Assembly: GCA_944389315.1 (NCBI GenBank)
Contig: CALXLX010000033.1
Coordinates: 2,981 to 66,980, forward strand
DNA length: 64,000 nucleotides
Direction: 5' to 3'
Source: an uncultured Opitutales bacterium
GTDB lineage: Bacteria > Verrucomicrobiota > Verrucomicrobiia > Opitutales > Intestinicryptomonadaceae
Shown here: positions 36,499 through 53,844 of the stretch, in pieces
Layout of the letters: the number at the start of each line of letters is the position of its first letter
How positions within the stretch are numbered: the first letter of the stretch is position 1
Translations under genes and position numbers: made by a program
Notes under the pieces: generated by a model
The model's database searches: none
What the model was told of the DNA's origin: nothing
Seen by the model: the letters and a program-made list of their open reading frames with translations, nothing else

Positions 36499-37242
36499 CT
36501 AATCCTCAAGAAATAGGCCCGCCGAGAACGAACAGCACGCCGCGGCCGTGTCTGTGCGCAAAACCCCTCCGCCCAAACTCGCCAGCACAAACCCGCGCGA
36601 GCGCAAAAAATTTCTGTCGGCAGCAGAAAACCCCCGTTCGGAACCCAAAACAAAGACGGCCGAGCGCGCGCGGCCCGCGCCGGGAACGGAAAACGCCCCC
36701 TTTATATCGACCGTTGCCTCGTACAAATCCGGCGCTATCAGCGCGCGCGGAGACGGCAAATTTAATTTTAGGACGGAATCTGCCATCTCCTCTAAAGACT
36801 CGAAGAAGTCCACCTTAGGCATATCCGTTCTGCAGCCCTGCGCAAGCCCCGCAATGCAGGAATCCCTCCATAGGCCCCCGGCAAAAAGGGAGCTTTTCGC
36901 ATATGCGGCAAAACTCTTTTCGGAGGGGTAAAAATATATGTATCTTACACCCATGCTCGCCGCGTCAAAAAGCACGCGCTTTGTTATCTGCGGACGCGCG
37001 TATGCAACACACAGGCAAATATTTACGCCCTTTGGATTGCCTACTATTCTCCACGGCCGCGCAAACACATATCCGGCCTCTGTTTTTACGAGCCGCGCTA
37101 CGCCCAAATCGCCGCCGGCTATGCCCACATACACCTCCGCGCCGTCCTCCGCTTTTAGCACCTCCCGAAGATGTTTTGCCCTTTCGTCGGAAAAAGGGAG
37201 CAAATCCGCCTCGCGGCTGTCTTTGAATATCACGGCGTTCAT
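36499..37242 (-). CDS. rsmE: 16S rRNA (uracil1498-N3)-methyltransferase family
   Basis: RsmE length and the C-terminal knot motif ..VLGSERGFS..E.. Confidence 0.75.
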   Translation of the reverse strand: MNAVIFKDSREADLLPFSDERAKHLREVLKAEDGAEVYVGIAGGDLGVARLVKTEAGYVFARPWRIVGNPKGVNICLCVAYARPQITKRVLFDAASMGVRYIYFYPSEKSFAAYAKSSLFAGGLWRDSCIAGLAQGCRTDMPKVDFFESLEEMADSVLKLNLPSPRALIAPDLYEATVDIKGAFSVPGAGRARSAVFVLGSERGFSAADRNFLRSRGFVLASLGGGVLRTDTAAACCSFSAGLFLED

Positions 37243-37286
37243 ATGTATGTATGCCCAAAATAAGATGTTGATATTATGGCAAAAAT

Positions 37287-37667
37287 ATGCACTTTAAAAC
37301 AGGTATGAATACAAAAGAATTTACCCCCCAAGACGAGGAAATTTTGCGCGAAAATATGAAACGCTGCTCGCCGGAGACTGTAGAGGCGGCAATAGCATTC
37401 AGAAAAACGGGCGACGTCTCCAAAATAAACGCAATAGTTCTAGGTATTCTGGAGCGTTTTGCGGACCCGTCGATGCGCGGTAAGCTCAAGGATCCGTCGG
37501 ACGACATGGTTCTGGCCCAGGAGCTTGGCTTGGACTCCCTTACCATGATGGAAGTGGTCCTTATGGTTGAGGATTCCATAGGAATTTCCATAGACACCGA
37601 AGAGGCGATGAAGCTGAAGACTTTCGGGGACATCAAAAATTATATAAATAAGAAGGCTGCCCAATAA
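37287..37667 (+). CDS. carrier-protein-like (phosphopantetheine-attachment) protein with an N-terminal extension of about 60 aa
   Basis: The C-terminal part (from about aa 70), DDMVLAQELGLDSLTMMEVVLMVEDSIGISIDTEEAMKLKTFGDIKNYI, is an ACP/PCP four-helix pattern with DSL (Ser84, nt 37536-37538). The start could be 37305. Confidence 0.6.
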   Translation: MHFKTGMNTKEFTPQDEEILRENMKRCSPETVEAAIAFRKTGDVSKINAIVLGILERFADPSMRGKLKDPSDDMVLAQELGLDSLTMMEVVLMVEDSIGISIDTEEAMKLKTFGDIKNYINKKAAQ

Positions 37668-37710
37668 AAGAAGGCCGCCGAAGATTCTGGGCAAGTTCGG
37701 ACAATACAAG

Positions 37711-38724
37711 ATGCAAGAGATTCCCGAGACGCAGACTCAAAGCGCGTTGATAGTGCGTCGTTTGACAAAATCCTACGGCGCGATAAAGGCCATAGACAAC
37801 GTCTCTTTCAGGGTTGCAAAGGGCGAGATTTTAGGGTTTCTGGGCCCCAACGGCGCGGGCAAGAGCACCACGATGCGCATAATAGCCGGCCTCAGCCAGG
37901 CTACGAGCGGCACTGTTGACGTGTGCGGAATAAGCGTGGCGCTATATCCCGACAAGGCGAAGAGCCACATAGGGTTTATGCCGGAGAACAACCCCCTACC
38001 CGAGGACGTCAGGGTCTTGGAATATCTGCGCTACAGAGCCAGGCTTAAGGGGCTGGACGGCAGGCGCCTGGCAGAGCGAGTCGACGAAGTGATGGACATC
38101 TGCCAGCTCAGGCACAAAGCCGCGCGAAAGATAATAGGGAATTTGTCCAAAGGCTTCAAGCAGAGGGTCGGAATAGCAGACGCCATACTTGCCGAGCCGG
38201 ACCTCATAATAATGGACGAGCCCACCATAGGCCTCGACCCCCACCAGATAATAGCAATAAGGGAGCTTATAAAATCCCTGAGGGGCAGAATGGCTGTGAT
38301 AATAAGCTCGCACATACTTCCGGAGATAGAGTTGGTTTGCGACAGGGCGATAATAATAAACCAGGGCTGCGTAGTGGCGAGCGGTTCTCCGGAGGCGCTA
38401 AGGAGGGAGTTTCTGCCCATGAACAGGCACAAGGTCTCACTGAAGCTTCAGCCCGACGAGTTCGGCAAAAGGCTCAAGAACATTTTGCCAAAGGCGGATT
38501 TCTCCGTCGATGCCGAGCTTGCCGACGCCGACGGATACTACCGCTATACGGTGAAGACGCCTCTGGAGGAGAGCGCGGGGGAGAAGCTGGTCAGAGAGTT
38601 TTCGTCCACGCCCGAATGCTGCCTCAGGGAAGTTGCGCTGGACAAGCCGAGCCTCGAGGAGGTGTTCATGGCGGCCACGCGCCGCAGTTGGGAACAGGTC
38701 ATGAAAAAGCCCGCGAAGGAATAG
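37711..38724 (+). CDS. ABC transporter ATP-binding protein (ABC-2/GldA-like, with a C-terminal accessory domain)
   Basis: Walker A GPNGAGKST, signature LSKGFKQR, Walker B IIMDEP, plus a C-terminal extension of about 100 aa. Confidence 0.9.
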   Translation: MQEIPETQTQSALIVRRLTKSYGAIKAIDNVSFRVAKGEILGFLGPNGAGKSTTMRIIAGLSQATSGTVDVCGISVALYPDKAKSHIGFMPENNPLPEDVRVLEYLRYRARLKGLDGRRLAERVDEVMDICQLRHKAARKIIGNLSKGFKQRVGIADAILAEPDLIIMDEPTIGLDPHQIIAIRELIKSLRGRMAVIISSHILPEIELVCDRAIIINQGCVVASGSPEALRREFLPMNRHKVSLKLQPDEFGKRLKNILPKADFSVDAELADADGYYRYTVKTPLEESAGEKLVREFSSTPECCLREVALDKPSLEEVFMAATRRSWEQVMKKPAKE

Positions 38725-38729
38725 ATATT

Positions 38730-39497
38730 ATGGGAAGGTTCAAAGCTCTTTTAAGCCACCAGATACAGTTGATGTTCATAGCTCCGTCGACGTATGTTGC
38801 GGCGTTTTTGTTCTTAAGCTTCATGGCGCTGATGTATCTTTTGTGCGTGGAGGAGATAAGCTCTTCCACCACGGCGATATCGCCGATGGAGACGTTTCTG
38901 TCCACGTTTTGGGTGCCGGTGCTTTTCATGGTTCCGCTGCTGACGATGCGCTCCCTTGCCGAGGAGAGGAGAATGGGCACTCTGGGGGCGCTGATGAGCA
39001 CTCCGGTTTCCGCATGGCAGATAGTGCTTTCAAAATACCTGGCCTGCTACATATTCTACATCCTCCTGTGGTCGCTGACTTTGGCGTATCCGCTGATACT
39101 GTTTTTCAGCCTGCCGCAGGCGGCCTCCGACGAGAGGATATTCTCGTGGCCGCAGATGTTTACGGGGTATTCCTTCATATTTGCGAGCGGGGCGATGTAT
39201 GTGGCCATAGGGATATTTTCAAGTTCGCTGACGCGCAGCACTCTGGTGGCGGGCATGCTGAGTTTCTGCATACTTTTCCTGGCGATAGTCGGCGTGGGCA
39301 TGATGATGAAGCTCGCCCCCGAGACGGAGAGCGCCTGGGGAACGTATATGGCGGGCGCGGCGGATTATCTGCAGCCCTTCAGGCAGCTCGAGGATTTCAG
39401 CGCGTCGATATTCGACACCAGGCCGTTTTTCCTGTATTTCAGCGCGACGGTCTTGCTGTTTGCCATAACGTCGCTTATAACGGAGGCTAAATCGTGA
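38730..39497 (+). CDS. ABC-2 type transporter permease (GldF-like)
   Basis: Six-helix hydrophobic protein starting MGRFKALLSHQIQLMFIAPSTYV, 6 nt after the ATPase stop. The listed 38337 start runs through the ATPase gene in another frame and is rejected. Confidence 0.8.
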   Translation: MGRFKALLSHQIQLMFIAPSTYVAAFLFLSFMALMYLLCVEEISSSTTAISPMETFLSTFWVPVLFMVPLLTMRSLAEERRMGTLGALMSTPVSAWQIVLSKYLACYIFYILLWSLTLAYPLILFFSLPQAASDERIFSWPQMFTGYSFIFASGAMYVAIGIFSSSLTRSTLVAGMLSFCILFLAIVGVGMMMKLAPETESAWGTYMAGAADYLQPFRQLEDFSASIFDTRPFFLYFSATVLLFAITSLITEAKS

Positions 39498-40972
39498 GAC
39501 GGAGTTTTGAGGATTTCCGCTTTGTCAGGCGGATAAGGAAGATAAATCTCGCCGCGCAGATAGTGCTTGGCCTGATACTCGTGGTTGCGCTAAACTTTCT
39601 CGCCGCGCGGCACTACTACAAGTACGATCTTTCCGCCAACAAGGTAAACTCCCTATCGCCGGAGAGCGCGGCGCACATGCTGAATTTGCCGGAGGACGTG
39701 GAGATATATTCGACATTCTCGAAGGGGGAGAGAAACACCAAGAACGAGCAGGAATACAGGCAGATAACGGCGCTCCTGAGGCGGTACGAATACGAGTCTT
39801 CCTTCGGGAAGAACGGAAAGATAAAGCTTAGGATTGTGGATCCGCATTTCGAGTCCCGCCTGGCGGAGAGCCTGTCGACGAAATTCGGGAAGGATATAGA
39901 CTCCTGCGTGATAATATCGGCCGGCGGCAGGTTCAAGAAGCTGTACTCGCCCGACTTGTACGAAATTTCCGCCGAGGACAGGGCATTTAGGGGAGAACAG
40001 GCAATAACGGGCGCGATAATCTCCGTGACAAACCCCAACGACAAAAAGATATACTTTTTAAAAGGGCACGGGGAGATGTCGCCTACGGACACGTCTCCGT
40101 CGAGGGGGCTTTCGGAGTTTGCGGCATATCTAAAGAACCTCAACTACGAGGTGGAGACTTTGGATTTGAGCCTGTCAAAGCAGGTTCCCGACGACGCCGG
40201 GCTGATTATAATAGCCTCCCCCCAGGCGAGCTTTCTTCCGCGCGAGATAGACGCAATAAGAAAGTATCTTTCAAACGCCAAGGGAAAGGCGGCAATATTT
40301 CTGGATTTGGGTTCCCTGCACGGCCTTGAGGAGGTTTTGTTCGAGTGGGGGATAATGAGCAACGACATGCTCGTGCTAGACACTTCCTCGGACTACGAGT
40401 CCTCCGACGGGGACCTCATAGCAAGGCGCTTCCCGCAGAATCCGCACCCGATAGTAAAATATCTGATAGACGCGCAGCTGCCCGTTCAGTTCGGGTCCGT
40501 GCGTCCCGTGAGGGAGGACATAGGCGCCCCCATAGACGACAACCTAAAAATTTTCCCGATAATACTCAGCGCGGAGACAAGCTGGGGGGAGAAGTCGTAC
40601 ATGCAGGGAGGAGTCCAGAAGTACGACGAAAGCACCGACTTGCCCGGCCCGCTTCCCCTTGCGATGGTTGCCAGCCGCAGCGGGGGGTCGGAACTCGGGC
40701 TGACCATACCCGGCGGGCGCGTGGCCGTTTTCGGCGACGACAATTTCATAGCCAACAAACGTTTCGGGAGGCTGGGCAATGCAAAGCTTGCGGTTAACAC
40801 AGTAAACTGGATGTTCGACGACAACGTCACCTTGAACATAGCCCCCCGCAAGACGCAGAGTTATTCCCTGACGTTGAGCCGTTCGGATTTGAAAAATTTA
40901 GCGTTGAAATTCAGCCTGCTTCCGTTGGGCGTCGGGCTCATAGGCATACTGGTTTACTTTGTGAGAAAATAG
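39494..40972 (+). CDS. GldG-like ABC-transporter auxiliary protein (N- and C-terminal TM anchors, large periplasmic domain)
   Basis: GTG start overlaps the permease stop (GTGA). TM helices LAAQIVLGLILVVALNFLAA and LLPLGVGLIGILVYFV. Internal ..KIYFLKGHGE.. and ..VAVFGDDNFIAN.. are typical of the GldG family. Confidence 0.7.
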   Translation: MRRSFEDFRFVRRIRKINLAAQIVLGLILVVALNFLAARHYYKYDLSANKVNSLSPESAAHMLNLPEDVEIYSTFSKGERNTKNEQEYRQITALLRRYEYESSFGKNGKIKLRIVDPHFESRLAESLSTKFGKDIDSCVIISAGGRFKKLYSPDLYEISAEDRAFRGEQAITGAIISVTNPNDKKIYFLKGHGEMSPTDTSPSRGLSEFAAYLKNLNYEVETLDLSLSKQVPDDAGLIIIASPQASFLPREIDAIRKYLSNAKGKAAIFLDLGSLHGLEEVLFEWGIMSNDMLVLDTSSDYESSDGDLIARRFPQNPHPIVKYLIDAQLPVQFGSVRPVREDIGAPIDDNLKIFPIILSAETSWGEKSYMQGGVQKYDESTDLPGPLPLAMVASRSGGSELGLTIPGGRVAVFGDDNFIANKRFGRLGNAKLAVNTVNWMFDDNVTLNIAPRKTQSYSLTLSRSDLKNLALKFSLLPLGVGLIGILVYFVRK

Positions 40973-40991
40973 AGGGAGGACGCAGAAAAAA

Positions 40992-42866
40992 ATGAGAAAC
41001 AAACTTACAATAGTTCTTCTTCTGCTGAATATTATCGTCTTTGGCGCAATATGGATGCTAGAGCGCTCGCCGCGCCAGAAGGCGGCCGCCGCGAGCCCCA
41101 TGGCCGACTTTACCATGCTGCAAGTCGAGGGCAAGAGCCTGGATTCCCCGCGCCTGATACGCCGCGAGAACAACCGCTGGCGCATAGTAAAGCCCATATC
41201 CTGGCCGGCGAATTTCTTCGCGGTAAACAGGATAAAAAGCCAGCTGGAATATCTGGACGGGCAGACGAGCTTTCCGGTTTCGGAGATAGAGTCCCACGGG
41301 CAGACTTTGGCGGACTACGGCCTCGACGCGCCAAACTTCATATTCAAGTTCGGGGACGACAAAAAGACCACGACGCTCAAGGTCGGCAAGGCAACCCCCA
41401 TAGGGAACAGGATATACATGCTCGACGAGGCCCTCGGCAGGATAATCGTCGTGGACAGGGAGCTTGTTGAGAGCCTCGCGATAGACATAGACCGCCTGCG
41501 TTCGCAGAACGTCTTTGAGATACCGAGGTTTGAGGTCGGGACAATCTCGATAAGAATACCGCGGCACGGGTCGGCGGAGTCGTCGGCATCGAGGTTCCTT
41601 CGCATAGGGCTAGTAAAGGACGGCCCGAGATGGAAGTTTGAATCCCCCGTCGCGGCCGAAGCCAACAACAAGGCAGTGGAGGCTTTCATAAGCTCGCTGT
41701 GCGCGCTGTCGGCCAAGTCTTTTGTGTCGGACGGCAAGGCGGTTGCAGATCTGGACATAGGAGCCTTTCCCCTCTCGATAACCCTGCAGGGCGTAAACCG
41801 CAGGCAGACGCTGCTGGTGGGCTCGCCAGTGCCCGATTCAGACCTGGTGTACGCAAAGTTGGAGGATAACCCCACGGTGTTTACTCTCGACGCCGGAGCA
41901 TTTAAGAACCTCGAGTCGCTAAAGACCTCTCTGAGGGACAGGAAGTTCATGAGATTCGACACCCCATCAATATCCGGGGTTGATATAGAATCGGGGAAAT
42001 CCTCCGTCAAGATAAGGAGCCTCAAAGACGGGAAGTGGGAGCTGTTGGGTTCGGGAGGCAACATTCCCGCGGACTCCGTGAAAATGACGGAACTTCTGGG
42101 AACGCTGTCCAACCTATCGGCGATAGATTTCGCCTCAGACAACTCAAAGGCGGATTTCAAATCCTACGGGCTGGACAACCCCGTCCTTAAGATAACGCTG
42201 TCCTTCGACGACAAGACTGAGAAGGCCCTGCTGATCGGCTCAACATACAAATACGGGGCGGCCTCCTTGGCGTATGCGGCTTTGGAGGGAGGCTCGAACG
42301 TATACGGAATTCCCGTCGGCATAATAAAGGAGTTCCCGGCAACTCCGCTGGACTACCGCTCAAGAATAATAAACGCCCTGCCCGAGAAGGCGGAGATAAG
42401 GGGAATAAAGCTGACCTACCTTGAAAACGCGCAGACGGTATTTGAATTGACCGCAAAGCCTGGCTCCAATTTGGCCGCGCAAATCGCGGAAATTTCGGAC
42501 AAGAGGAAACGTTCGGCGGCACAGACCATAGCCGGATACGGCAGGAATTTTGTCGCGCAAAAGTTCGAGGACTGCGCGTTTGCTGCCGACGGATTCAAAA
42601 ACGCCAAGGGGGAATTTGTTAAATGGCATTGGGTTCTCGAGATTACCGCGAGCCTTCCCGGAACGGGAAAGACCATAAACCAGACCTACAAATACTATCT
42701 CGCCGACCGCAGCGGAGGAACCGAACAGTTCGGCGGATTTGAGGATTGCCCGAATGTGTTCAACATTCCCCAGAAACTCATCAACGCCTTATTTGAATTT
42801 GAAACGGAAGTAATCGAAAAGGCGAAAGCGGCTCCGGCGCCGAAGAAGCCCGAAGAAAATAAGTGA
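40992..42866 (+). CDS. DUF4340 domain protein (N-terminal TM anchor)
   Basis: TM LTIVLLLLNIIVFGAIWML. ..WRIVKPISWPANFFAVNRIKSQL..LADYGLDAPNFIFKFGD..LKVGKATPIGNRIYM.. is the DUF4340 pattern that usually follows gldG-like genes. Confidence 0.65.
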   Translation: MRNKLTIVLLLLNIIVFGAIWMLERSPRQKAAAASPMADFTMLQVEGKSLDSPRLIRRENNRWRIVKPISWPANFFAVNRIKSQLEYLDGQTSFPVSEIESHGQTLADYGLDAPNFIFKFGDDKKTTTLKVGKATPIGNRIYMLDEALGRIIVVDRELVESLAIDIDRLRSQNVFEIPRFEVGTISIRIPRHGSAESSASRFLRIGLVKDGPRWKFESPVAAEANNKAVEAFISSLCALSAKSFVSDGKAVADLDIGAFPLSITLQGVNRRQTLLVGSPVPDSDLVYAKLEDNPTVFTLDAGAFKNLESLKTSLRDRKFMRFDTPSISGVDIESGKSSVKIRSLKDGKWELLGSGGNIPADSVKMTELLGTLSNLSAIDFASDNSKADFKSYGLDNPVLKITLSFDDKTEKALLIGSTYKYGAASLAYAALEGGSNVYGIPVGIIKEFPATPLDYRSRIINALPEKAEIRGIKLTYLENAQTVFELTAKPGSNLAAQIAEISDKRKRSAAQTIAGYGRNFVAQKFEDCAFAADGFKNAKGEFVKWHWVLEITASLPGTGKTINQTYKYYLADRSGGTEQFGGFEDCPNVFNIPQKLINALFEFETEVIEKAKAAPAPKKPEENK

Positions 42867-45814
42867 TTTTCAAGGGACAGAGGCATTTTCCGTCGAGGCG
42901 CGGCGGGGTTTTGTCGCGCGCGGCGTCTTGCGCGGCAAATTTGCTTTTGTTTTCAATGCTTGCGATTCAGTCGGGTTGGCTGGCCTTGTATTTCTCGGGC
43001 AAAGACCTGCCGGTGCCCGGGTTTCTGAAGAACTACATATCGGAATACGCCAGCGAAAACGGGTTCGCATTTACGGCCGAACGCGCCTATGTGGGGCTGG
43101 ATGGCAGAATCGTTCTAATAGGCGTATCCGCCGGATTCTTGGACGGCAACAATACCGTCTTCAGGGCCGAACGGCTCGAGATTGGCATAGACATAGCAAA
43201 GTTGGCCAGCGCCACATTCAGGCCTAATCTCCTGCTGCTAAAAAACGCCGCGCTATACGGAGGAAATAACGAGAAGGCGGCGGTCGAGAAAATCAACGCG
43301 CTCATAATCCGGAGACGGGGAAATTTCATTTTAAAAAGGGCGAGCGCCAACATGGGCGCCCTGAAGGTCAGAATGGGCGCGATAGTTCCAAAGAGCTTCG
43401 ATGCGGGCTCCCTGGGGTTTCTCCCTTCCGGCGGCGGGAAAGCCGCGGCGGGGGCGGGCAAAGCGGAGAGCCTGAGCCGCAGATGGGATAGCGCCTGCGA
43501 GAAAATAGCGGGGGCGGCAAATTTGTTCGACGGGTTCGACTCACCCGTGCTGGAGCTTAGCATAGACGCCTCCCCGGACGCCCGAACCTTTGCGGAGGCC
43601 GTCTTCACGGCGGAGAAATACAAAGGGCTTCTAAAAGAAAACCCCGTTGTTCTGTCAAGGCCCCGGGTAGATTTAAAGTTGGACAAACCCGGCGCCGACT
43701 ATGCGAGAGTCGTCATGAGGGTGGAGAAGTTGACAGCCGCAATTCCCGGGGAGAAATTGGAGGTCGGCTGCTCGGAATTCTCCGCGCTGTTGGAGGTGAA
43801 AAGTTTTAAAAAAAGGCTCTCTGCAGGAGGCTTTTCCGCGAGGCAAGCGGCGCTTTCCGCCGACACCCTCAAGGCGTCAAAGCTCGGGATAAAAAACCTA
43901 AGCGCCTCGAAGGACACTCTCTCCGCAGCAGACGCCACGGACGGCTGGCGGATTTTCTTCAGGCACGGCGACGGTTCCTTCGAGGCCGACCTGCGCGGAA
44001 ATTCCGAAAGGCTGCAGGTGCAGTTCGACTCGCGAGCAGACTTCAACGCGCTCATAAGGCATCCTTCGTTATCGCATGTAAAAGAGCTGCGCGGCACAAG
44101 TTTCAACGGGCCCGTGCACATATCCGGCATTTGCGACATATTTCCTCCGCGCGGAGAGGGAAACATGCAGGCGAAAATACGCGCGGACATGTTTGCGCAG
44201 GATTGTTCATTTCTGGGAATACCCGTCGAGGAGATGTCCTCGAAGCTAAGTTTCGACACAGAGGATAAGGTTTTCAGGGCGGATGGAGCCTCCATAAAGA
44301 CGCGCGAAGGCTGGCTCATAGGCGGAGACGTCTTTCAGAACATATCGGACGGCACCTATTCTTTCGCGCTGAAAGGCGGGATAATGCCCATGCGCATAGC
44401 AGGCATCATGGCCCCGTGGTGGACGAGAATATTCAAGACCACGCGCTTTGAAAAATCTGCCCCAGAGGCCGACGTATTTGTGGAGGGAAGATGGGGGCAT
44501 CCGGAATACATCTGGTGTTTTGCAAAAGCGGTCGGGGACGACGTTGAATACGGCGGCAGCCTCTTTAAAAGCTTCTCGGCCTTCGTTCTAGTAAATCCGC
44601 GCCTAATAGCGCTTCTGGACGCCGACATACAAAACGGGGAGAGCCGCGCGAAGTTCGACCTGCAATGGCTCTACGGCAAAAACGGCATAACCCACTTTGA
44701 AAAAAACACCCTAAACGGCAGTTTCGAGCTCACTCAAAGCGAGATAATCTCGCTGGCCGGCAGCGAGGTGGAGGAGATATTCAAGGTAATATCCTTCGCG
44801 GACAGACCCTCCGCGGAGGTCAACGCGCTGCTGTTCAATCCAAAAGACGCAAACGCCCCCGAAGACATGTACGAGGCGCGGATAAACTCCCACGGGAAGA
44901 TGTGCCTCGACGCCGTGGATTTCGACAATGCGTCGTTTTTCGCCTTCGCGCAGGGAGGCCTGATAGACGCCGGGGAGATAGAGGCGCAAACCTGCCACGG
45001 GGAGATTTTCGGCTCGGCAAGGGTTACCGACGTGTACGACAAGGAAAAGGCCTCTTTGCATCTGTCGCTAAACTGCCAGGATTTAAATGTCGGGGAGTTT
45101 CTCGAAACCCTGTCGGATATAGGCAAGACGCCCGAGCAAATACTCGAGGAAAACGCCCAGGACGCGCGGGACAGGCTGAATAATCAAAATGCAAAGGGGG
45201 CAAAAGGCGCCTTCGCCGGAGCGGAAGACGCGAAGCTCTCGGGGAGCATGACTCTTTCAGGGCCGCTGTTCGACCCTTCGGGGCTATCCGGGAACGGGAA
45301 TGCGGTGGTGCAAAGTCCGCAGCTGGGCAAGCTGAACCTTCTCGGGGCAATATCGCGCACGCTCGGCAGGTTCGGGGCGAACATGGGCACATTCGACGTG
45401 ACGGACGCCTCTGCGGAGTGTTCCGTCGGCGAGGGCTCAGTGGAGTTTAAAAACCTCGAGATAACGGGGCCAAAGATAAAGATATCTGGGCTTGCCAACT
45501 ACGAATTTATAAACGGAGACATAAAGGGCAGGCTTTTAATATCGCCGTTCGGCTCCATGGACACGCCCGTGCTCTCGCGCATATTCGCGGCGATAGACCC
45601 CTTCATGAGCGTCTTTGAGGTATTCTTAAGCGGCAAGATAGAAGACCCGGCCATAGGCGTTACGATAAGGCCCCTGAATATATTCAACTCCGAGGAGAAG
45701 CTTCTGGAGTCCTTCGACAAGGAGATGCGCCAGTCTGACGAAGGCAAAGAATCAAACGAGGTGAAGAAGGCCACCCCAGAGGGGGAAAGCTCCGGGGAAA
45801 ATGAAGAAAATTAA
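42863..45814 (+). CDS. AsmA-like / TamB-like large envelope protein (N-terminal TM anchor, acidic C-terminal tail)
   Basis: GTG overlaps the upstream stop (GTGA). TM AANLLLFSMLAIQSGWLALYF. The C-terminal ..FDVTDASAECSVGEGSVEFKNLEITGPKIKISGLANYEFINGDIKGRLLISP...VFLSGKIEDPAIGVTIRP resembles AsmA-family C-terminal domains. Confidence 0.55.
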   Translation: MIFKGQRHFPSRRGGVLSRAASCAANLLLFSMLAIQSGWLALYFSGKDLPVPGFLKNYISEYASENGFAFTAERAYVGLDGRIVLIGVSAGFLDGNNTVFRAERLEIGIDIAKLASATFRPNLLLLKNAALYGGNNEKAAVEKINALIIRRRGNFILKRASANMGALKVRMGAIVPKSFDAGSLGFLPSGGGKAAAGAGKAESLSRRWDSACEKIAGAANLFDGFDSPVLELSIDASPDARTFAEAVFTAEKYKGLLKENPVVLSRPRVDLKLDKPGADYARVVMRVEKLTAAIPGEKLEVGCSEFSALLEVKSFKKRLSAGGFSARQAALSADTLKASKLGIKNLSASKDTLSAADATDGWRIFFRHGDGSFEADLRGNSERLQVQFDSRADFNALIRHPSLSHVKELRGTSFNGPVHISGICDIFPPRGEGNMQAKIRADMFAQDCSFLGIPVEEMSSKLSFDTEDKVFRADGASIKTREGWLIGGDVFQNISDGTYSFALKGGIMPMRIAGIMAPWWTRIFKTTRFEKSAPEADVFVEGRWGHPEYIWCFAKAVGDDVEYGGSLFKSFSAFVLVNPRLIALLDADIQNGESRAKFDLQWLYGKNGITHFEKNTLNGSFELTQSEIISLAGSEVEEIFKVISFADRPSAEVNALLFNPKDANAPEDMYEARINSHGKMCLDAVDFDNASFFAFAQGGLIDAGEIEAQTCHGEIFGSARVTDVYDKEKASLHLSLNCQDLNVGEFLETLSDIGKTPEQILEENAQDARDRLNNQNAKGAKGAFAGAEDAKLSGSMTLSGPLFDPSGLSGNGNAVVQSPQLGKLNLLGAISRTLGRFGANMGTFDVTDASAECSVGEGSVEFKNLEITGPKIKISGLANYEFINGDIKGRLLISPFGSMDTPVLSRIFAAIDPFMSVFEVFLSGKIEDPAIGVTIRPLNIFNSEEKLLESFDKEMRQSDEGKESNEVKKATPEGESSGENEEN

Positions 45815-45929
45815 CCTGCATGCGCCGCGCGCAGGCCGAAGCCGGAGACCGGCCAAACGCCAAAAAAACGCCTGACATGGAAGAATTTTGTATTTGTAAA
45901 ATGGGTTTAAAGAGGCAATCCTATAGACA

Positions 45930-46868
45930 ATGAAAAACGGCAAACTTTTGTGCGCGGTTGCGGGAGTCGGCTATTTGGGCGAGCACCACGCGAGAATCTA
46001 TTCCGAGCTGGAGCATACGGAGCTGGTCGGCGTATTCGACCCCAACAGGCCGCGCGCCGAACAGATAGCGGCAAAATTCGGCTGCAGGGTGTTCGACTCT
46101 CTCGAGCAGCTGGGAGAAGCCGCAGAGGCCGTGAGCGTGGTGGTTCCCACGGACAAGCACGCGCAGGTGGCCGTACCGCTGCTTAGGCAAAACTGCCATC
46201 TGCTTGTGGAAAAGCCCTTCTGCACCACAACGGAGGAGGCCGAGGAGATGATTTCCGAGGCAAAGAAGCGCAACCTTATAATACAAGTCGGGCACATAGA
46301 GCATTTCAATCCGGCGATGGGCTTCATGGAGGAGCACGTGAAGAATCCGAAATTTATCACCGCGGACCGCCTTGCGCCCTTCAACCCGCGCGGGACCGAA
46401 GTGGGCGTCGTGCTCGACTTGATGATACACGACATAGGAATAGTCCTCAAGCTTGCCGCATCTCCCGTAAAGAGGATAGAGGCTGTGGGCGTAAACGTCA
46501 TAAGCAGCCGGGAGGACATAGGCAACGCGCGAATAGTTTTCGAAAACGGGTGCGTGGCAAATCTCAATGTAAGCCGCGTCAGCCTGAAGAAGCTCAGGGA
46601 GATAAGGATATTCCAGCCCGGCGGATACATGTCCTTGGATTTGATGAACCAAAGCGGCCACGTTGTAAAGATAGTCGACGGGGCGGTCGAGAGAATAGAA
46701 GTTCCCATGCAAAAGCAGGAGCCGCTGAAGATAGAGCTTGGAAGCTTCGCCGACTGCGTGATGAACCACCACGACCCGAAGGTGGACGCAAGGCTCGGCC
46801 TGCGCGCGCTGGAAGTCGCCCTTGAGATAACGCGGCAGATACGCGCTATGATGAACGATGCCAAGTAG
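45930..46868 (+). CDS. Gfo/Idh/MocA family oxidoreductase, possible UDP-GlcNAc 3-dehydrogenase (GnnA-like)
   Basis: Rossmann CAVAGVGYLGEHHARIY and the EKP motif (LLVEKPFC). About 312 aa. The 3' end overlaps the lpxB start by 11 nt. The GnnA assignment rests on context only. Confidence 0.6.
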   Translation: MKNGKLLCAVAGVGYLGEHHARIYSELEHTELVGVFDPNRPRAEQIAAKFGCRVFDSLEQLGEAAEAVSVVVPTDKHAQVAVPLLRQNCHLLVEKPFCTTTEEAEEMISEAKKRNLIIQVGHIEHFNPAMGFMEEHVKNPKFITADRLAPFNPRGTEVGVVLDLMIHDIGIVLKLAASPVKRIEAVGVNVISSREDIGNARIVFENGCVANLNVSRVSLKKLREIRIFQPGGYMSLDLMNQSGHVVKIVDGAVERIEVPMQKQEPLKIELGSFADCVMNHHDPKVDARLGLRALEVALEITRQIRAMMNDAK

Positions 46869-48042
46869 CAGCTCCATACCGCGTTCTTTTGCGCCACCGA
46901 AAGACGGGGCCTGCGATATTCTGCTGATAGCCGGAGAGCACTCTGGAGACCAGCAGGCCGCAAGAATGTTGCGCGCCCTGTCCAAGGAGGACAACACAAA
47001 GCGGGTGTGCGCATTCGGAGGCAGGGAGATGGAAGCGGCCGGGGCGCAGCTTTTGTTCGACATGACGGGATTTTCCGTAGTCGGGCTTTTCGAGGTTTTG
47101 AAGAATTACGGATTTTTCAAGGTCTTGGCGGAGAGAATCGTCGGCTGGATAGAAAAGTACAGGCCCAAAACCGTGTGTTTTGTGGATTATCCGGGCTTCA
47201 ACCTGCATCTTGCGGGCCTGTTGAAGAAGCGGGGCATAAGCATAAAAGGCGGTGGAAACGTCAGGGCGATATATTATATAAGCCCTCAAATCTGGGCGTG
47301 GAAGGCCGGCAGGCGCTTTAAAATGGCCGAGCTTCTGGACTCCCTTGCAGTGATATTTCCCTTTGAGACGGCCTGCTATGCTGACACTTCCCTAAAGGCG
47401 GAGTTTGTCGGCCACCCCTTTCTCGATCCCGGGCATGTCTCTCCCGTGGAGTACGACGCATCCTCCCCGCTGCTCTTTCTTCCCGGAAGCCGCAAGGCCG
47501 CAGTGGGAAGGATATTTCCCATAATGCTTAAGACTCTGCGCCTGCTCGGCAAAGAGAAGGCGCTAGTGCCCTACCCGAGCCAGACCATAAAGGCGGTTCT
47601 CGAGAAAATTCTCAAAAAGTTTCCGGACTTGAAATACAGGGTTAGCCTGCTGGACGATACAAGCTCCTTCCCCCTAAGGGCGAAAGCCGCCCTGATGAGC
47701 TCGGGAACCATGTCTTTAAATTGCGCCCTCGCGGGGATTCCCGCGGCGATAGTCTACAAGGCGAACATATTTACATATCTTGCGGCGCGCCCGATAGTGA
47801 GCATATCGTATCTTGGCATATCCAACATACTTTTGAACGGGTCCTCCCTGCTAGAGTACATACAGTTTGCCGCAAGGCCGGCTGTTTTGGCAAAGCGCAT
47901 GCGCTATTGCATGGACAACCCCAAAGCGCGCGCCGAAGCCCTTGCCGACGCAAATGAGCTAAAGCGCATACTTTCCGCTCCCAACAAGACAGGCGCCGCA
48001 GGCTGGCTTCTAAAAAACGCAAACGCGGCTTTGCCGAGGTAG
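46858..48042 (+). CDS. lpxB: lipid-A-disaccharide synthase
   Basis: ILLIAGEHSGDQQAARMLRAL, ..VDYPGFNLHLA.., ..YYISPQIWAWKAGR.. and ..LSGTMSLNCALAGIPAAIVYK.. Confidence 0.9.
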   Translation: MPSSSSIPRSFAPPKDGACDILLIAGEHSGDQQAARMLRALSKEDNTKRVCAFGGREMEAAGAQLLFDMTGFSVVGLFEVLKNYGFFKVLAERIVGWIEKYRPKTVCFVDYPGFNLHLAGLLKKRGISIKGGGNVRAIYYISPQIWAWKAGRRFKMAELLDSLAVIFPFETACYADTSLKAEFVGHPFLDPGHVSPVEYDASSPLLFLPGSRKAAVGRIFPIMLKTLRLLGKEKALVPYPSQTIKAVLEKILKKFPDLKYRVSLLDDTSSFPLRAKAALMSSGTMSLNCALAGIPAAIVYKANIFTYLAARPIVSISYLGISNILLNGSSLLEYIQFAARPAVLAKRMRYCMDNPKARAEALADANELKRILSAPNKTGAAGWLLKNANAALPR

Positions 48043-48051
48043 AATTTATTT

Positions 48052-48074
48052 GCCTTGCATAAGGCTATTTTCTC
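48052..48074 (+). terminator. weak candidate terminator after lpxB
   Basis: GCCTT-gcat-AAGGC followed by TATTTTCTC. The stem is only 5 bp. Confidence 0.25.
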
Positions 48075-48257: not shown

Positions 48258-49475
48258 TCAGCGGGATATAATCTCCGCGGTATTTTTCAGCCAGCCGTTG
48301 TCGGCTGAGTCGAGATAGAGCCAGTCCAACCCCTCAGAGGACACTTTAACCGCGCATTCGCTCTCCGTGCCGTCCTTAAGGCGCGCAAGCACGCAATTTT
48401 TGCCCTCTTTCAAATAGACAAAATCTTTGGGCACCCGCCACAAGCCGCCAGATTTGGATACCGGCACTTCCGCCAGGGCCACCATTCCGGGCAGAAGGGT
48501 TTTTCTGAGGTTCTCCGGAGTGTCCTTGTCGAGCTTTACCCTGACTTCAAAGAACTTTTTGTGGCTCTGAAATTTGTCCTCCACGGCGAGTTTTGAAATT
48601 CCGTCTATAGTTCCCCTGAAAAGTTCGGACGGGCTAGACAGCAGCCTGAATGTCACAACCGCACCCATTTCAATATTCTTTATCAGCGCCTGCTCTATCT
48701 TGAGGGTAAGCCCCATGGTGGAGAAATCCGGCAGGCGCATAAATTCCATGCCCTGTGAGAGGAAATCGCCAACCTCGGACTGCCGCCACTTATTGTCTAT
48801 GAGTTTGTAGGGAAGAACTACCATGGAGTCGAACGGAGCGCGCAGGACGTAGTCTTCAAGATAGGTTTCGTCGCGGAATATGCGGTACTCGTGATGCCGC
48901 AACACGCCCTTGTGGCGCTTTATCCTGTCCTCGTTCATGCGCTTCGAGCCCTCGCGCTTGACGCGCGAGGCGTTGTACTGCGAGCGCGCGGAGGAATACT
49001 GCAAATCCGCCATTTGCGAGCGCATAGACTCGTAGAACTTAAGGCTTTGTATGTCCGAATAGTACAGTCCAAGCTGGTTTCTTGTTGCGGATATGTCCAC
49101 GCTCATCTCGTATTCGGACATGTCCCATTCCGCCTCGAGGTTCTCGAGGTCGAACTGGCTTGAATACATCAGTTCCTCCTTCAGCTCTATGGCGTTTAAA
49201 ACCGGACTTACGTCGAAACGCGCAATAATCTCCCCTTTCTTTACAAAGGTTCCCTCCTGCGGCAGATAGGTGAGCTGCTTTTCATACGGTGACAAGGGCG
49301 AGCGTATTCCCACATAGTAGAGAGCCTCCATGACTCCGTCCATTTTAACCGTCTCTATAAAATCTCCCTCGCGGGGTATGAAACTCGCGCACGGCCTGCT
49401 CCCCCCGCGGAGTATTAGTACCGCGGCAAAGACAACCGCAGCGCACACAGCAAGCGTTAGCGCAAATTTCTTCAT
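48258..49475 (-). CDS. HlyD/MacA-type membrane fusion protein, paralogue 3
   Basis: N-terminal anchor. Lipoyl-half motif LPQEGTFVKKGEIIARFD, a coiled-coil middle, ..VLRAPFDSMVV.., and ..LLPGMVALAEVPV.. Confidence 0.75.
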   Translation of the reverse strand: MKKFALTLAVCAAVVFAAVLILRGGSRPCASFIPREGDFIETVKMDGVMEALYYVGIRSPLSPYEKQLTYLPQEGTFVKKGEIIARFDVSPVLNAIELKEELMYSSQFDLENLEAEWDMSEYEMSVDISATRNQLGLYYSDIQSLKFYESMRSQMADLQYSSARSQYNASRVKREGSKRMNEDRIKRHKGVLRHHEYRIFRDETYLEDYVLRAPFDSMVVLPYKLIDNKWRQSEVGDFLSQGMEFMRLPDFSTMGLTLKIEQALIKNIEMGAVVTFRLLSSPSELFRGTIDGISKLAVEDKFQSHKKFFEVRVKLDKDTPENLRKTLLPGMVALAEVPVSKSGGLWRVPKDFVYLKEGKNCVLARLKDGTESECAVKVSSEGLDWLYLDSADNGWLKNTAEIISR

Positions 49476-50686
49476 TTGGCACCCCTGACAAGCTTCACCA
49501 TGCCTCCGCCCAATTCTGAGGCCGGCACATAGACAAAATTTTCGTCGGCGCGCGCGGCGCTTATGCTCCGCATGCGGCGTTCGCCGCCCGGCAGGAGAAG
49601 CTCCACACTTTTGCCGTCCCCCGAATCGGACACGTAGTCCACCGGAATGGCGTACACATTCTCAAACTCGCCCAAAATTATGCGCGCGGAAACCGTCATG
49701 CCCGGCATAAGCCCCGAAAGCCGCGGGGATTCGTCCAAGGCAATGTTTGCCTCAAAGTACCTGCGCGATTCCTCCCCCGAGATGTCGTCTGTTGGGGTTG
49801 CCGAAAAGCTCTTGACCCTGCCCGTAAACGTCTCCCCGGGAAGCGCCCGCGCACAAAACTCCACCTTCTGCCCCTGCCTGAGCATCTTTACGCCGCCCTC
49901 GCGCAGGCGCAATACCACGCATTTAGAGGAGAAATCAGGCAGACGGGCGAACTCCTGAAGCTGCACAAGGCTGTCTCCCTGCTCGGCCTTTTTGAGTATG
50001 CCGGCTATGTAGATTTGCGGATAGCTTATGACGGAATCGTACGGAGCGCGTATGTCGTAAAGGCCTATGAGATCCTCGGTCTTTTTGATATTTTTCTTGT
50101 GGCGCTCCATCTTGTCGTCCTGATACCCCTCGGCTATCTTGCGCTGCTGCGCGAGCCTGTCTTTCCGCGACTGCAAAGCCCCGAGATATCCGCGCTGGTT
50201 GTTGGCGCTTATCTGAGCCATCTTGCGCACAAGGGTTGCATGGTACTTTTTCTGGTCGACGTCCAAATCTTGGAGCGCGACTGTCTCTATCTGCATGGAC
50301 ACCGAATTTTCCGAAGTCTCCATGGTGGTGTCCCAGGCAAGGTCGAAGGCTGCCCTGTCCTCTATGAGAGTCTGGGTGCGCAGGGCCAGCTCCTCGAGGT
50401 ACAAGGCTATGTCCGAAGCGTCGAACTTGGCGACAAGCTCCCCCTTAGACACCTCCGCACCCTCCTCCTTAAGCCAGACTATCTGGCGGGAGAACCTGCT
50501 GTCCGGCGCGCGCAGCACGCTGAATTTGAAAGTGTCCACGCTGCCCTTTGCCTCCATCGCGGAAACCGCCCTTTCCAGCGGCGCGAACTCCCCGGAGGCG
50601 TATCCGCCCCCGGAGCCGGCAAGAAAGAACCTCGCCGCGAAGAATCCCGCGGCGGCGAGCAATACTGCCAGGACAAACTTACCCAT
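49472..50686 (-). CDS. HlyD/MacA-type membrane fusion protein, paralogue 2
   Basis: LKEEGAEVSKGELVAKFD, ..DIRAPYDSVIS.. and ..LMPGMTVSARIILGEFENVYAIPVDYV. It overlaps paralogue 3 by 4 nt. Confidence 0.75.
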   Translation of the reverse strand: MGKFVLAVLLAAAGFFAARFFLAGSGGGYASGEFAPLERAVSAMEAKGSVDTFKFSVLRAPDSRFSRQIVWLKEEGAEVSKGELVAKFDASDIALYLEELALRTQTLIEDRAAFDLAWDTTMETSENSVSMQIETVALQDLDVDQKKYHATLVRKMAQISANNQRGYLGALQSRKDRLAQQRKIAEGYQDDKMERHKKNIKKTEDLIGLYDIRAPYDSVISYPQIYIAGILKKAEQGDSLVQLQEFARLPDFSSKCVVLRLREGGVKMLRQGQKVEFCARALPGETFTGRVKSFSATPTDDISGEESRRYFEANIALDESPRLSGLMPGMTVSARIILGEFENVYAIPVDYVSDSGDGKSVELLLPGGERRMRSISAARADENFVYVPASELGGGMVKLVRGAK

Positions 50687-50692
50687 AAGCTC

Positions 50693-51904
50693 CTACTCGT
50701 ACCTCAAGGCGTCTATAGGGTTCATCTCCGAGGCGTTCTTCGCCGGATAATAGCCGAACACAACACCTATGAGAACCGAGAAGCAAAAAGACAAAGCAAC
50801 CGCCCCGAGAGGGACGGGCATGTCCCACCCGGTTGCAAATTTTATCACGAAGGTGAGCATCAGCCCCACAACTATTCCTATTACGCCCCCCGCGCTTGTG
50901 AGCACCACGGCCTCTGCGAGAAACTGCTGGCGTATGTCGAGCTTCGTGGCGCCCATGCCCCTGCGTATGCCTATCTCCTTAGTGCGCTCGAGCACCGAGG
51001 CGAGCATTATGTTCATTATGCCTATGCCGCCAACAATCAGGGATATGCTCGTTATCAAAAGCATGATGGAGTTGAACAAATTCTGGGTGTTTTCCGCCTG
51101 CCTCAACTGGGCTTCGGGAACCGTCATTTCAAAGTCGTCGAGGGCGCTATGCCTGCGCTTGAGTATCTTTGCGACAAACTCCGAAACCGCCCTTATGGAC
51201 GGAATGGAGTCTATGTAGAAAATCGCCCCCGAAAGCGGCGCCTCGAAGGCGGCGAGAGTCTCGGTAAGGAGGGGCTCGTTCCAGAGCAGATAGACGCCGT
51301 TGTCGTATCCCGGCTTTTCAGACAGCACGCCAACCACCCTAAAGTGCCTGTCGTTTATGCGTATGAATGAGCCCAGCGCCCTGCTCTGCTTGAACATTCT
51401 CTCCGCCGCTGAGGAGCCCAACACGCAGATCTTGGGGACATTTTCCTCGTCAGCCGCGGCAAACAGCCTGCCCGACTCCGCCGAAAGGCCGAGCATCTCA
51501 AAGAAATTTCCGTCTGTGCCCGTCACCTCCATGGCGCCGTTGAAGGATTCCGACTGCACAAAAAGCTCCTTCTTCTTAAGCGGAGAGGCGCGGGTAATTT
51601 CGCTTATGCTCGCCAAGATGAAATCCATGTCGGAGCGGCTCATGCCGTCGGAGACGTAGGCCCCCTTTTCAAACGCGTCGCGCCTGACCTGCGGCATGTC
51701 GGATACAAACACGTTGTTTATGCCCATCTCCTGTATGCCCTTTAGCGCCTTTCTCTTGGCGCCCTCGCCTATCGCCGTCATAGCTATGACCGCCGATACG
51801 CCGAATATTATGCCCAGCACAGTCAGAAAACTGCGCAACTTGTGGTCGAGCAGGCTGCGCAGGGACATGCGCAGGTACTTCAGAAATTTAACCGTTTTGA
51901 GCAT
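50693..51904 (-). CDS. ABC transporter permease, MacB/FtsX-type
   Basis: N-terminus LRSLLDHKLRSFLTVLGIIFGVSAVIAM (MacB_PCD type), a large periplasmic domain, and a C-terminal FtsX 3-helix bundle (..GIMNIMLASVLERTKEIGIRRGMGA..). Confidence 0.85.
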   Translation of the reverse strand: MLKTVKFLKYLRMSLRSLLDHKLRSFLTVLGIIFGVSAVIAMTAIGEGAKRKALKGIQEMGINNVFVSDMPQVRRDAFEKGAYVSDGMSRSDMDFILASISEITRASPLKKKELFVQSESFNGAMEVTGTDGNFFEMLGLSAESGRLFAAADEENVPKICVLGSSAAERMFKQSRALGSFIRINDRHFRVVGVLSEKPGYDNGVYLLWNEPLLTETLAAFEAPLSGAIFYIDSIPSIRAVSEFVAKILKRRHSALDDFEMTVPEAQLRQAENTQNLFNSIMLLITSISLIVGGIGIMNIMLASVLERTKEIGIRRGMGATKLDIRQQFLAEAVVLTSAGGVIGIVVGLMLTFVIKFATGWDMPVPLGAVALSFCFSVLIGVVFGYYPAKNASEMNPIDALRYE

Positions 51905-53153: not shown

Positions 53154-53836
53154 TCGGTAATCCTTCCGTCCTTTATGCGAACAACCCTGCGCGTCTTGTG
53201 GGCGACCTCCGGGTCGTGCGTGACTATTATCACCGTGACCCCGTTGTCGTTAAGGCGCGTGAAAAGCTCCATTATCTCCTCGCTGGTCCGGCTGTCGAGA
53301 GCGCCGGTGGGCTCGTCGGCAAGTATCAAAGAGGGGCTTGCAACAAGCGCGCGGGCTATGGCAACCCTCTGCCTCTGGCCGCCGGAAAGCTCGTTGGGCC
53401 TGTGGCGGGCGCGGTCGGCTATGCCGACAGTCTCAAGGGCGTGCATTATGACGTTTCTGTCCGCCGGCCTGTTCTGGTAAAACAGCGGAAGCGCGACATT
53501 CTCGTAGGCGGTATTGCGCGGAAGAAGATTGAAGGTCTGATAGACAAACCCTATCTCGCGCCCCCTGATGATGGATTCCTCGTCGTCGGTAAGATTTGTG
53601 ACGTCCTTGCCGTTTAGCCTGTAGACGCCCCTCGTCGGCCTGTCGAGAAAGCCTATTATGTTCATAAGCGTGCTCTTGCCCGACCCGGAAGAGCCCATTA
53701 TGGACATGTACTCGCCCTTGTATATCTTCAGATTCACATGCTTTAGGACGAGCAGTTCCTCCTTGCCGAGATAATAGGCCTTGTCGAGGTTTTCACATTC
53801 TATAAGGGGCGTTAAGTTTCCGTTGCTATCCGACAT
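53150..53836 (-). CDS. ABC transporter ATP-binding protein (MacB/LolD-type, stand-alone)
   Basis: GSSGSGKSTLMN, LSGGQRQRVAIARAL and ILADEPTGALD. Confidence 0.9.
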   Translation of the reverse strand: MSDSNGNLTPLIECENLDKAYYLGKEELLVLKHVNLKIYKGEYMSIMGSSGSGKSTLMNIIGFLDRPTRGVYRLNGKDVTNLTDDEESIIRGREIGFVYQTFNLLPRNTAYENVALPLFYQNRPADRNVIMHALETVGIADRARHRPNELSGGQRQRVAIARALVASPSLILADEPTGALDSRTSEEIMELFTRLNDNGVTVIIVTHDPEVAHKTRRVVRIKDGRITE

Positions 53837-53844
53837 CGCTCCTC

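Follow-up and report, generated by a model that had tools for sequence, protein, structure and literature searches.

The window analysed here is a stretch of 64,000 nucleotides (nt) from an uncultured Opitutales bacterium (GenBank assembly GCA_944389315.1, contig CALXLX010000033.1). Between positions 37287 and 45814 of its forward strand lie six closely packed genes, which encode a carrier protein, an ATP-binding cassette (ABC) ATPase, an ABC-2 permease, a GldG-like auxiliary protein, a protein of the DUF4340 family and a protein of 983 amino acids (aa) related to the AsmA-like envelope proteins (Table 1). An initial annotation had read them as a six-gene operon and candidate system for lipid or glycolipid export across the envelope, and the open reading frame (ORF) listing and translations confirm six plus-strand genes at the coordinates it had claimed. 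The operon itself has to be redrawn in part: the conserved unit across Opitutales (Verrucomicrobiota) is a five-gene operon, running from the ATPase gene to the AsmA-like gene, and the carrier gene, found at 33 of the 81 loci compared, is not a conserved part of it.

These 81 loci comprise 80 from one genome per GTDB species and one ENA contig, and are nearly all labelled as Opitutales or its families, the rest carrying broader labels only. The window proteins were mapped onto all ORFs of the loci, which were also searched with a hidden Markov model (HMM) of the AsmA-like family. A locus is informative if its contig reaches past the DUF4340 gene, as is the case for 78, the other three contigs ending there. 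At all 78 the genes for the ATPase, permease, GldG-like, DUF4340 and AsmA-like proteins follow in this order on one strand, so that the synteny of the AsmA-like gene with the ABC, GldG and DUF4340 genes, which had been set beforehand as a refutation test, held throughout the informative Opitutales loci. Median gaps within the core are -1, -1, 5 and 6.5 nt, that between the permease and GldG-like genes being -1 nt. The same arrangement is present in Cephaloticoccus and another Opitutaceae genome, and in three of four distant members of the AsmA-like family sampled from metagenomes. One locus labelled Yoonia sp. (Alphaproteobacteria; L071) also bears an Opitutales-type five-gene cluster, probably as a result of an error in the binning of a metagenome-assembled genome (MAG).

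Amino acid identity across the loci ranges from 29 to 54% for the DUF4340 protein and from 15 to 35% for the AsmA-like protein; judged by such values, the latter evolves much faster than its operon partners. The linkage persists even at about 29% DUF4340 and about 15% AsmA-like identity. The loci include a closer, mostly gut-derived clade and a marine clade of Puniceicoccaceae and Coraliomargaritaceae, and no flanking gene family is common to both. Because the gaps are tight and no other neighbour is conserved across the two clades, the five genes have been kept together while their flanks were replaced.

In the window, the junction sequences bear out the tight packing first described, with gaps of 43 nt between the carrier and ATPase genes, 5 nt between the ATPase and permease genes and 19 nt between the GldG-like and DUF4340 genes. 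The permease stop and GldG-like start share a 4-nt overlap at 39494 (TC[GTGA]), as do the DUF4340 stop and the start of the 983-aa gene at 42863 (AA[GTGA]). The permease had been placed 6 nt after the ATPase stop, which is right in that its ATG begins at the sixth base, although only 5 nt lie between the two genes. The 983-aa gene is followed after 115 nt by a gene for a GnnA-like oxidoreductase. Rfam gave no match in the operon region, and the only RNA gene of the window is a tRNA-Gln (CTG) at 1387-1460 (ARAGORN, Rfam). Family assignments were judged against Pfam gathering scores and NCBIfam equivalog cut-offs. All six that had been proposed for the plus-strand genes stand, five of them directly by Pfam and that of the AsmA-like protein only through profile methods and structure prediction.

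Table 1. Genes of the five-gene core and its flanks in the window
Feature	Position	Strand	Product length	Family
Carrier-protein gene	37287-37667	+	126 aa	PF00550 PP-binding
ABC ATPase, core gene 1	37711-38724	+	337 aa	PF00005 ABC_tran
ABC-2 permease, core gene 2	38730-39497	+	255 aa	PF12679 ABC2_membrane_2
GldG-like auxiliary protein, core gene 3	39494-40972	+	492 aa	PF09822 ABC_transp_aux
DUF4340 protein, core gene 4	40992-42866	+	624 aa	PF14238
Divergent AsmA/YhdP-type protein (predicted), core gene 5	42863-45814	+	983 aa	Profile and structure level
RsmE 16S rRNA methyltransferase, divergent	36499-37242	-		PF04452, TIGR00046
GFO/IDH/MocA oxidoreductase, UDP-GlcNAc 3-dehydrogenase-like (GnnA-like)	45930-46868	+		PF01408, NF040723
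LpxB, lipid-A-disaccharide synthase	46858-48042	+		PF02684, TIGR00215

The 983-aa protein and its operon partners

The 983-aa protein has no Pfam match even at E<=10 and no NCBIfam match. A word-indexed homologue search returned the protein itself and one relative of 53% identity, and three proteins when a profile was used, while an exhaustive HMMER search (E<=0.001) recovered 496 clusters, with lengths of 880-1000 aa for most of the 150 listed. In 37 of 52 homologues from related loci there are matches to the YhdP family (PF13116) of 13-25 bits against a cut-off of 46; the listed ones align with the C-terminal portion of the model. Other sub-threshold Pfam matches among the 52 are to AsmA (five), DUF748 (two) and TamB (one, E 0.07), and neither the window protein nor any of these homologues reaches the gathering threshold of AsmA, YhdP, DUF748 or TamB. 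One family member is named by NCBI as an 'AsmA-like C-terminal region-containing protein'.

The relationship is clearer in profile comparisons, for which an alignment of 111 family sequences was used. With hhalign, the family matches the canonical protein P0116, a bona fide YhdP/AsmA/DUF748 protein (Pfam YhdP 144 bits, AsmA 85 bits), at 97% (E 9e-11, 226 columns, window residues 681-944), Escherichia coli YhdP at 87% (E 4e-6, window residues 843-933 against YhdP 1149-1255) and E. coli AsmA at 77% (E 2e-5, 259 columns). The family HMM also finds P0116 at E 3.7e-20, with collinear matches at the N- and C-terminal ends (hmmsearch). Membership of TamB (DUF490) was rejected, as hhalign against E. 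coli TamB gave 2.8% and no Omp85 gene is conserved nearby. A search of the PDB by sequence found no relative of the family.

With the alignment as input, AlphaFold2 returned a model with a predicted local distance difference test (pLDDT) of 88.2 and a predicted template modelling score (pTM) of 0.68, compared with a pLDDT of 34.6 from the single sequence. In the model, residues 16-45 form a helix, after which come 49 strands; these are arranged in about eight blocks split by short helices or loops and would be consistent with repeating beta-groove units. A Foldseek search of the PDB gave low template modelling (TM) matches only (0.1-0.24), which are weak, led by the lipid-binding beta-belt of ApoB100 and by LptD; such matches would suit an extended beta-sheet that handles lipid. 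By its profile matches and predicted fold, the 983-aa protein belongs to the AsmA-like superfamily as a divergent member that is nearer to YhdP and AsmA than to TamB. It represents a new subfamily, 900-1000 aa long in the Opitutales operons, that current Pfam and NCBIfam models miss.

The N-terminal anchor that had been proposed for this protein corresponds to the modelled helix at 16-45. In a Kyte-Doolittle scan (19-residue window, threshold 1.6) the hydropathy peak of the window protein is 1.57, just below the threshold, and 105 of the 111 family members exceed 1.6. Basic residues lie ahead of the helix, and by the positive-inside rule the rest of the protein would be periplasmic. NCBI places the start at M32, giving 952 aa, and this call is disfavoured because it removes half of the predicted anchor helix; the GTG start at 42863 is favoured because the family is conserved from about residue 18-29 and because the same 4-nt overlap recurs at L001, the locus of the 53%-identical relative. 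Very few positions of the family are invariant. One cluster of these lies in a helical insert between beta blocks at 505-542 (G505, P509, W519, W520, F529, D537 and G542) and includes a WW motif (W519, W520) that is a candidate docking or gating site. Others are C-terminal (G713, G812, G828, S831 and G869).

The ATPase matches ABC_tran at 98 bits (Pfam cut-off 25) and retains intact motifs in its translation, with Walker A as GPNGAGKST, the signature as LSKGFKQR and Walker B as IIMDEP. Its best NCBIfam match is GldA, at 261.3 bits below a cut-off of 402.6, and these scores and motifs identify it as a predicted ATPase of the GldA/DrrA type, homologues of which were found at 77 of the 81 loci. 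The permease matches PF12679 (37.8 bits, cut-off 27.2) and, at 89.7 bits against a cut-off of 288.5, GldF; it has six hydrophobic segments by the Kyte-Doolittle scan, is 255-256 aa long at most loci, and is GldF/NosY-like by these matches. The auxiliary protein matches ABC_transp_aux (PF09822) at 66.7 bits (cut-off 34.7), the GldG equivalog at 53.9 bits (cut-off 389.85) and DUF7088 at 27.4 bits, just under the cut-off of 27.8, and contains an IFT52/GIFT-like region at 21 bits, below the Pfam cut-off. The equivalogs GldA, GldF and GldG were each rejected as assignments, since all three subunits fall far under the respective cut-offs and are related rather than orthologous.

The fourth protein matches DUF4340 (PF14238) at 172 bits in three stretches (cut-off 25); 113 homologues were found, of which the named ones are from Opitutales, Opitutaceae, Lentimonas and Cephaloticoccus. 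PF00005, PF12679, PF09822 and PF14238 are thus encoded by adjacent genes, all above their gathering scores, as an ABC-2/ABC_transp_aux/DUF4340 module, and this gene order recurs at 77-81 of the loci and in other phyla. Hydrophobic segments at 19-37 and 469-487 of the GldG-like protein and at 5-23 of the DUF4340 protein agree with the anchors first described, at both ends of the former and at the N-terminus of the latter, and the positive-inside rule predicts that the bodies of both are periplasmic. By sequence, the PDB holds no relative of the DUF4340 protein, the GldG-like protein or the permease.

Possible coupling of the transporter and the AsmA-like protein

The reading preferred here, tentatively and with somewhat less than even confidence, is that the five products form one envelope machine in which the ABC-2 unit extracts a lipid, the GldG-like and DUF4340 proteins act as adaptor and the AsmA-like protein provides a groove. 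Powered by ATP, an (ATPase)2(permease)2 complex would act at the inner membrane, where it would flip an amphipathic lipid or draw it out of the bilayer. A periplasmic adaptor or scaffold, made up of the inner-membrane-anchored GldG-like and DUF4340 proteins, would then deliver this lipid into the AsmA-like protein, along whose hydrophobic groove it would travel towards the outer membrane. Such a machine would repeat the logic of LptB2FGC-LptA-LptDE with unrelated parts. As cargo, a bulk envelope lipid such as a glycerophospholipid would be most likely, with no specific indication of lipid A. It is a further and rather doubtful claim that this would be the first AsmA-type lipid bridge to be loaded and powered by its own ABC transporter, with the GldG-like and DUF4340 proteins as adaptors. 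A functional coupling of the ABC unit and the AsmA-like protein is suggested by their synteny, and the gene linkage supports the operon as a candidate for machinery that loads AsmA-like bridges.

Several points weigh against a single machine, beginning with the evidence for coupling, which is genomic throughout. The four-gene module occurs outside Opitutales: in a Binatia genome (L086) it stops at the DUF4340 gene, after which comes a convergent gene. A metagenome scan seeded with the Binatia-type permease gave 80 loci, about 16 of them with a DUF4340 match and at least 2.5 kb of downstream sequence. In these roughly 16 non-Opitutales loci the AsmA-like family HMM found no match beside the module, and ten downstream ORFs from non-Opitutales modules contain no AsmA-clan domain in Pfam. 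Because the four-gene module occurs there without an AsmA-like neighbour, it would have a function that is independent of a bridge. The gene for the fourth of the distant family members (P0259, at L083/L084 in a Puniceicoccales MAG) is not linked to the ABC module; it follows mutL and a GFO/IDH/MocA gene and possibly represents a second paralogue outside the operon. Among the top 50 Foldseek matches, all of low TM, there is no structure of TamB or YhdP. For canonical AsmA-like proteins, which function with no ABC transporter of their own, a live model is that lipid flows passively, driven by lipid synthesis (PMC10900882). The cargo is also affected, since the GIFT-type domain of GldG was reportedly proposed by Beatson and Ponting in 2004 to bind sugar, which would favour a glycan or glycolipid.

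The initial annotation had asked how often clusters of GldG-like and DUF4340 genes carry an AsmA-like gene, and the answer divides along these lines: they do at 78 of 78 informative Opitutales loci and do not in the roughly 16 modules elsewhere. Within this sample, only Opitutales-type loci pair the module with an AsmA-like gene. At the loci nearest to the Binatia type, the DUF4340 protein is shorter, at about 460-500 aa. Two non-Opitutales four-gene modules (L104 and L122) have envelope-modifying enzymes downstream on the same strand, namely a polysaccharide deacetylase in one, and a deacetylase-family protein with an MBOAT O-acyltransferase in the other. At a further set of metagenome loci (L140, L143, L149, L153-L155, L157, L160-L164 and L169-L171) the permease is contained in an ORF of about 760-800 aa, mostly about 800, which at L160 reaches the end of the contig. 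On contigs that extend further, the next ORF is a conserved one of about 375 aa on the plus strand, and there is no separate GldG or DUF4340 match; these loci may represent a fused variant of the module.

An alternative is that the genes are co-regulated and their products mechanistically independent, so that the AsmA-like protein would be a passive phospholipid bridge like YhdP or YdbH, brought into the operon merely to have its expression track an ABC/GldG/DUF4340 system that exports or drives something else. This is considered unlikely, although it accounts for the four-gene modules of Binatia and the metagenomic loci, for the unlinked P0259 and for the canonical genes, since the YhdP-type gene of P0116 stands alone and E. 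coli yhdP and asmA have no ABC transporter neighbour; it also agrees with passive flow as a current model (PMC10900882). However, linkage at 78 of 78 loci, with overlaps or gaps of a few nt and with all other neighbours replaced, is more than co-regulation usually preserves, and at these loci the AsmA-like gene invariably closes the operon, immediately behind the DUF4340 gene.

A different division of labour would make the ABC-2 unit a mechanotransducer, as in NosDFY, FtsEX or MacB-like systems, using ATP to alter the conformation of the GldG-like and DUF4340 proteins in the periplasm, or would have it move a non-lipid cargo. A surface polymer, a glycan or an outer-membrane protein would then be assembled or moved, and the AsmA-like protein would have a role in outer-membrane protein or polymer assembly, of the type originally assigned to TamB, and not in bulk lipid flow. 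The placement of the permease in PF12679, with the gliding proteins GldA, GldF and GldG as nearest named relatives, points in this direction, as do the sub-threshold GIFT-like region of the GldG-like protein and the polysaccharide deacetylase and MBOAT acyltransferase genes that follow two modules outside Opitutales. Yet no glycosyltransferase, polymerase or outer-membrane secretin or barrel gene is conserved beside the Opitutales operon, AsmA-like proteins are now mainly tied to lipid transport (PMC10665443, PMC10345924, PMC10900882), and a relationship to TamB is not detectable at the 2.8% given by hhalign. This alternative is regarded as quite unlikely, and lipid transfer by the five products together is retained as the preferred explanation.

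Flanking genes and the choice of cargo

The flanks of the operon in the window are as first described, with a divergent rsmE upstream and, on the same strand downstream, the GnnA-like gene followed by lpxB. RsmE is supported by PF04452 (74.9 bits) and TIGR00046 (68 bits, cut-off 41). The GnnA-like protein matches PF01408 at 105 bits and NF040723 at 232 bits, against a cut-off of 450 for the latter. LpxB matches PF02684 at 231 bits and, at 199 bits, passes the cut-off of 190 for TIGR00215; its gene overlaps the oxidoreductase gene by 11 nt. The carrier protein has a PP-binding match of 34.2 bits (cut-off 20.8), the phosphopantetheine motif GLDSL and about 50 additional residues at its N-terminus, and all NCBIfam models for acyl carrier proteins score below their cut-offs. 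At L001 the carrier gene is called at 120 aa, corresponding to a start at 37305 in the window, which may be the true start here as well.

The distance from the rsmE start to the carrier start is 44 nt, or 62 nt if the carrier gene begins at 37305, and this spacing (37243-37304) leaves very little room for two promoters. A scan for sigma-70-like promoters found none in the rsmE/carrier gap; overall, seven were found where 6.2 are expected in shuffled sequence.

From the carrier protein and the neighbouring lipid A genes, it had been argued that the cargo is an acylated envelope lipid. In its most specific form this would mean that lipid A, lipopolysaccharide or a specially acylated glycolipid is exported by the operon, with the carrier providing the acyl group and the GnnA-like protein and LpxB building the precursor. 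The layout of the window lends itself to such a reading: the core is preceded by the carrier gene and followed, without a change of strand, by the GnnA-like and lpxB genes, an arrangement shared by about 25 related loci. Furthermore, no terminator-like site was found on the plus strand at 45815-45929, between the AsmA-like and GnnA-like genes (fold z-score 0.27, not significant), and the first such site after the AsmA-like gene is at 48052-48065, following lpxB. Because no terminator-like site lies between them, local co-transcription of the AsmA-like, GnnA-like and lpxB genes is possible in the window.

However, the association does not extend beyond one clade. The carrier gene (33 of 81 loci), rsmE (32), the GnnA-like gene (25, paired with lpxB) and lpxB (26) occur in the closer, mostly gut-derived clade only and are absent from all marine Puniceicoccaceae and Coraliomargaritaceae loci, where the gene after the AsmA-like gene is usually on the opposite strand. 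The position of the core beside lpxB is thus a feature of 26 closer-clade loci and of no marine locus. Even within the closer clade, the lipid A genes are missing from at least five loci that extend well downstream (L018, L023, L027, L032 and L033), while the five-gene core persists. The gap from carrier to ATPase gene is loose, with a median of 114 nt across loci, and the cluster contains no acyltransferase gene, no homology to LptF, LptG, LptC or LptA and an ATPase that scores 140 bits on LptB against a cut-off of 240. Because the carrier, GnnA-like and lpxB genes are confined to one clade, the argument for lipid A as cargo is weak, and this cargo is held to be very unlikely. A link to lipid A as a conserved feature was rejected, and the carrier, GnnA-like and lpxB genes are lineage-specific neighbours outside the proposed machine.

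Directly after lpxB, on the opposite strand, the window contains a six-gene cluster (48258-55575). Its counterpart at L001 encodes an OEP (TolC-like) protein, an ABC_tran protein, two HlyD/AprE-type barrel proteins, a MacB_PCD/FtsX protein and one without a Pfam match, by which the cluster is a predicted MacAB-TolC-like efflux system.

Comparison with known systems

An acknowledged open question is how AsmA-like bridges receive phospholipids from the inner membrane and whether energy is needed for this. The extraction step is stated to be unknown, with LptBFG and LolCDE considered unlikely to perform it, and the loading or energising step is treated as open (PMC10900882), in agreement with the initial annotation, which had noted that AsmA-like proteins have no known energising partner. 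An operon in which, across a whole order, the gene for an AsmA-like protein is joined to those for an ATP-driven ABC-2 transporter and two periplasmic partners provides a concrete test system, and cultured hosts exist in Intestinicryptomonas porci (L012), Thalassobacterium spp. (L038 and L063) and Puniceicoccaceae strain Marseille-Q1082 (L018). What is new is the AsmA-like subfamily and the composition of the operon, the component families being already known. The operon would also give a first functional handle on the widespread GldG-like and DUF4340 families. If a bridge powered by its own ABC transporter proves to be true, it would provide the first mechanistic role for the widespread and uncharacterised GldG/DUF4340 ABC module; if the genes are merely co-regulated, what remains is a new AsmA-like subfamily that evolves fast and is missed by Pfam and NCBIfam.

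DUF4340 is almost absent from the literature. No paper was found that links DUF4340 or GldG with AsmA-like proteins, and the initial annotation likewise knew of no characterised system with this composition. In transposon sequencing of Verrucomicrobium spinosum, the DUF4340 region of VSP_RS39600 is given as essential (PMC12283558), a hint that viability in Verrucomicrobiota may depend on DUF4340 systems. Five guessed locus tags for its neighbours were not found in the supplementary text of that paper (PMC12283558).

Like E. coli YhdP, AsmA and YdbH, the Opitutales protein is predicted to be anchored in the inner membrane by its N-terminus and to extend into the periplasm as a long body that is almost entirely beta, and its C-terminal region is homologous to YhdP and AsmA. 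With 983 aa it is shorter than YhdP (1266 aa) and yet long enough to span the periplasm; YdbH has 879 aa. It differs from YhdP and AsmA in falling below all Pfam and NCBIfam thresholds, and in being encoded by the last gene of an ABC-2/GldG/DUF4340 operon, whereas the E. coli genes have no transporter neighbour.

An ABC extractor joined to a periplasmic bridge is the established logic of the Lpt system (PMC10345924). By analogy, the Opitutales operon may share this logic of an inner-membrane ABC extractor feeding a periplasm-spanning hydrophobic beta-groove. In contrast to Lpt, its permease is of the ABC-2 type and not LptF/G, its bridge is AsmA-like and not a beta-jellyroll oligomer, and the parts other than the ATPase are not homologous. 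No LptD-like barrel is encoded near the operon. Membership of the Lpt pathway was rejected on the missing matches to LptF, LptG, LptC and LptA and on the LptB score given above.

Among named families, the closest to the ATPase, permease and auxiliary protein are those of the GldA/GldF/GldG system of Bacteroidota, the substrate of which is as unknown as that of the Opitutales system. The host here is a verrucomicrobium, the subunit scores are far below the equivalog cut-offs, and Gld systems are not known to include DUF4340 or AsmA-like partners. The four-gene module of Binatia (L086) has the same first four genes in the same order and of the same Pfam families, but it ends at DUF4340 with no AsmA-like gene detectable downstream.

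ABC-2 transporters, which have the type V fold, are known as exporters. This counts against a reversed direction of transport, in which, as in Mla, ATP hydrolysis would serve to retrieve mislocalised lipids, drawing them out of the outer membrane and through the bridge to the inner membrane. ABC-powered retrograde transport of phospholipids is established for Mla (PMC10345924), and in Negativicutes mlaEFD, tolC and tamB share one operon (PMC10665443). In Veillonella parvula, however, genetic evidence indicates that Mla and TamB are antagonists rather than parts of one machine (PMC10665443), and none of the six Opitutales proteins contains an MCE domain, so that retrieval is judged highly improbable. 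Membership of the Mla/MCE systems was rejected on the same ground, with no MCE or MlaE match in any of the six proteins (Pfam, NCBIfam). The mlaEFD-tolC-tamB operon of V. parvula is the nearest precedent for the Opitutales operon, being likewise a conserved operon with a lipid ABC transporter beside an AsmA-like gene. There, the transporter is of the MCE/Mla type and, on genetic grounds, opposes TamB, retrograde against anterograde, whereas the Opitutales genes are spaced tightly enough for translational coupling.

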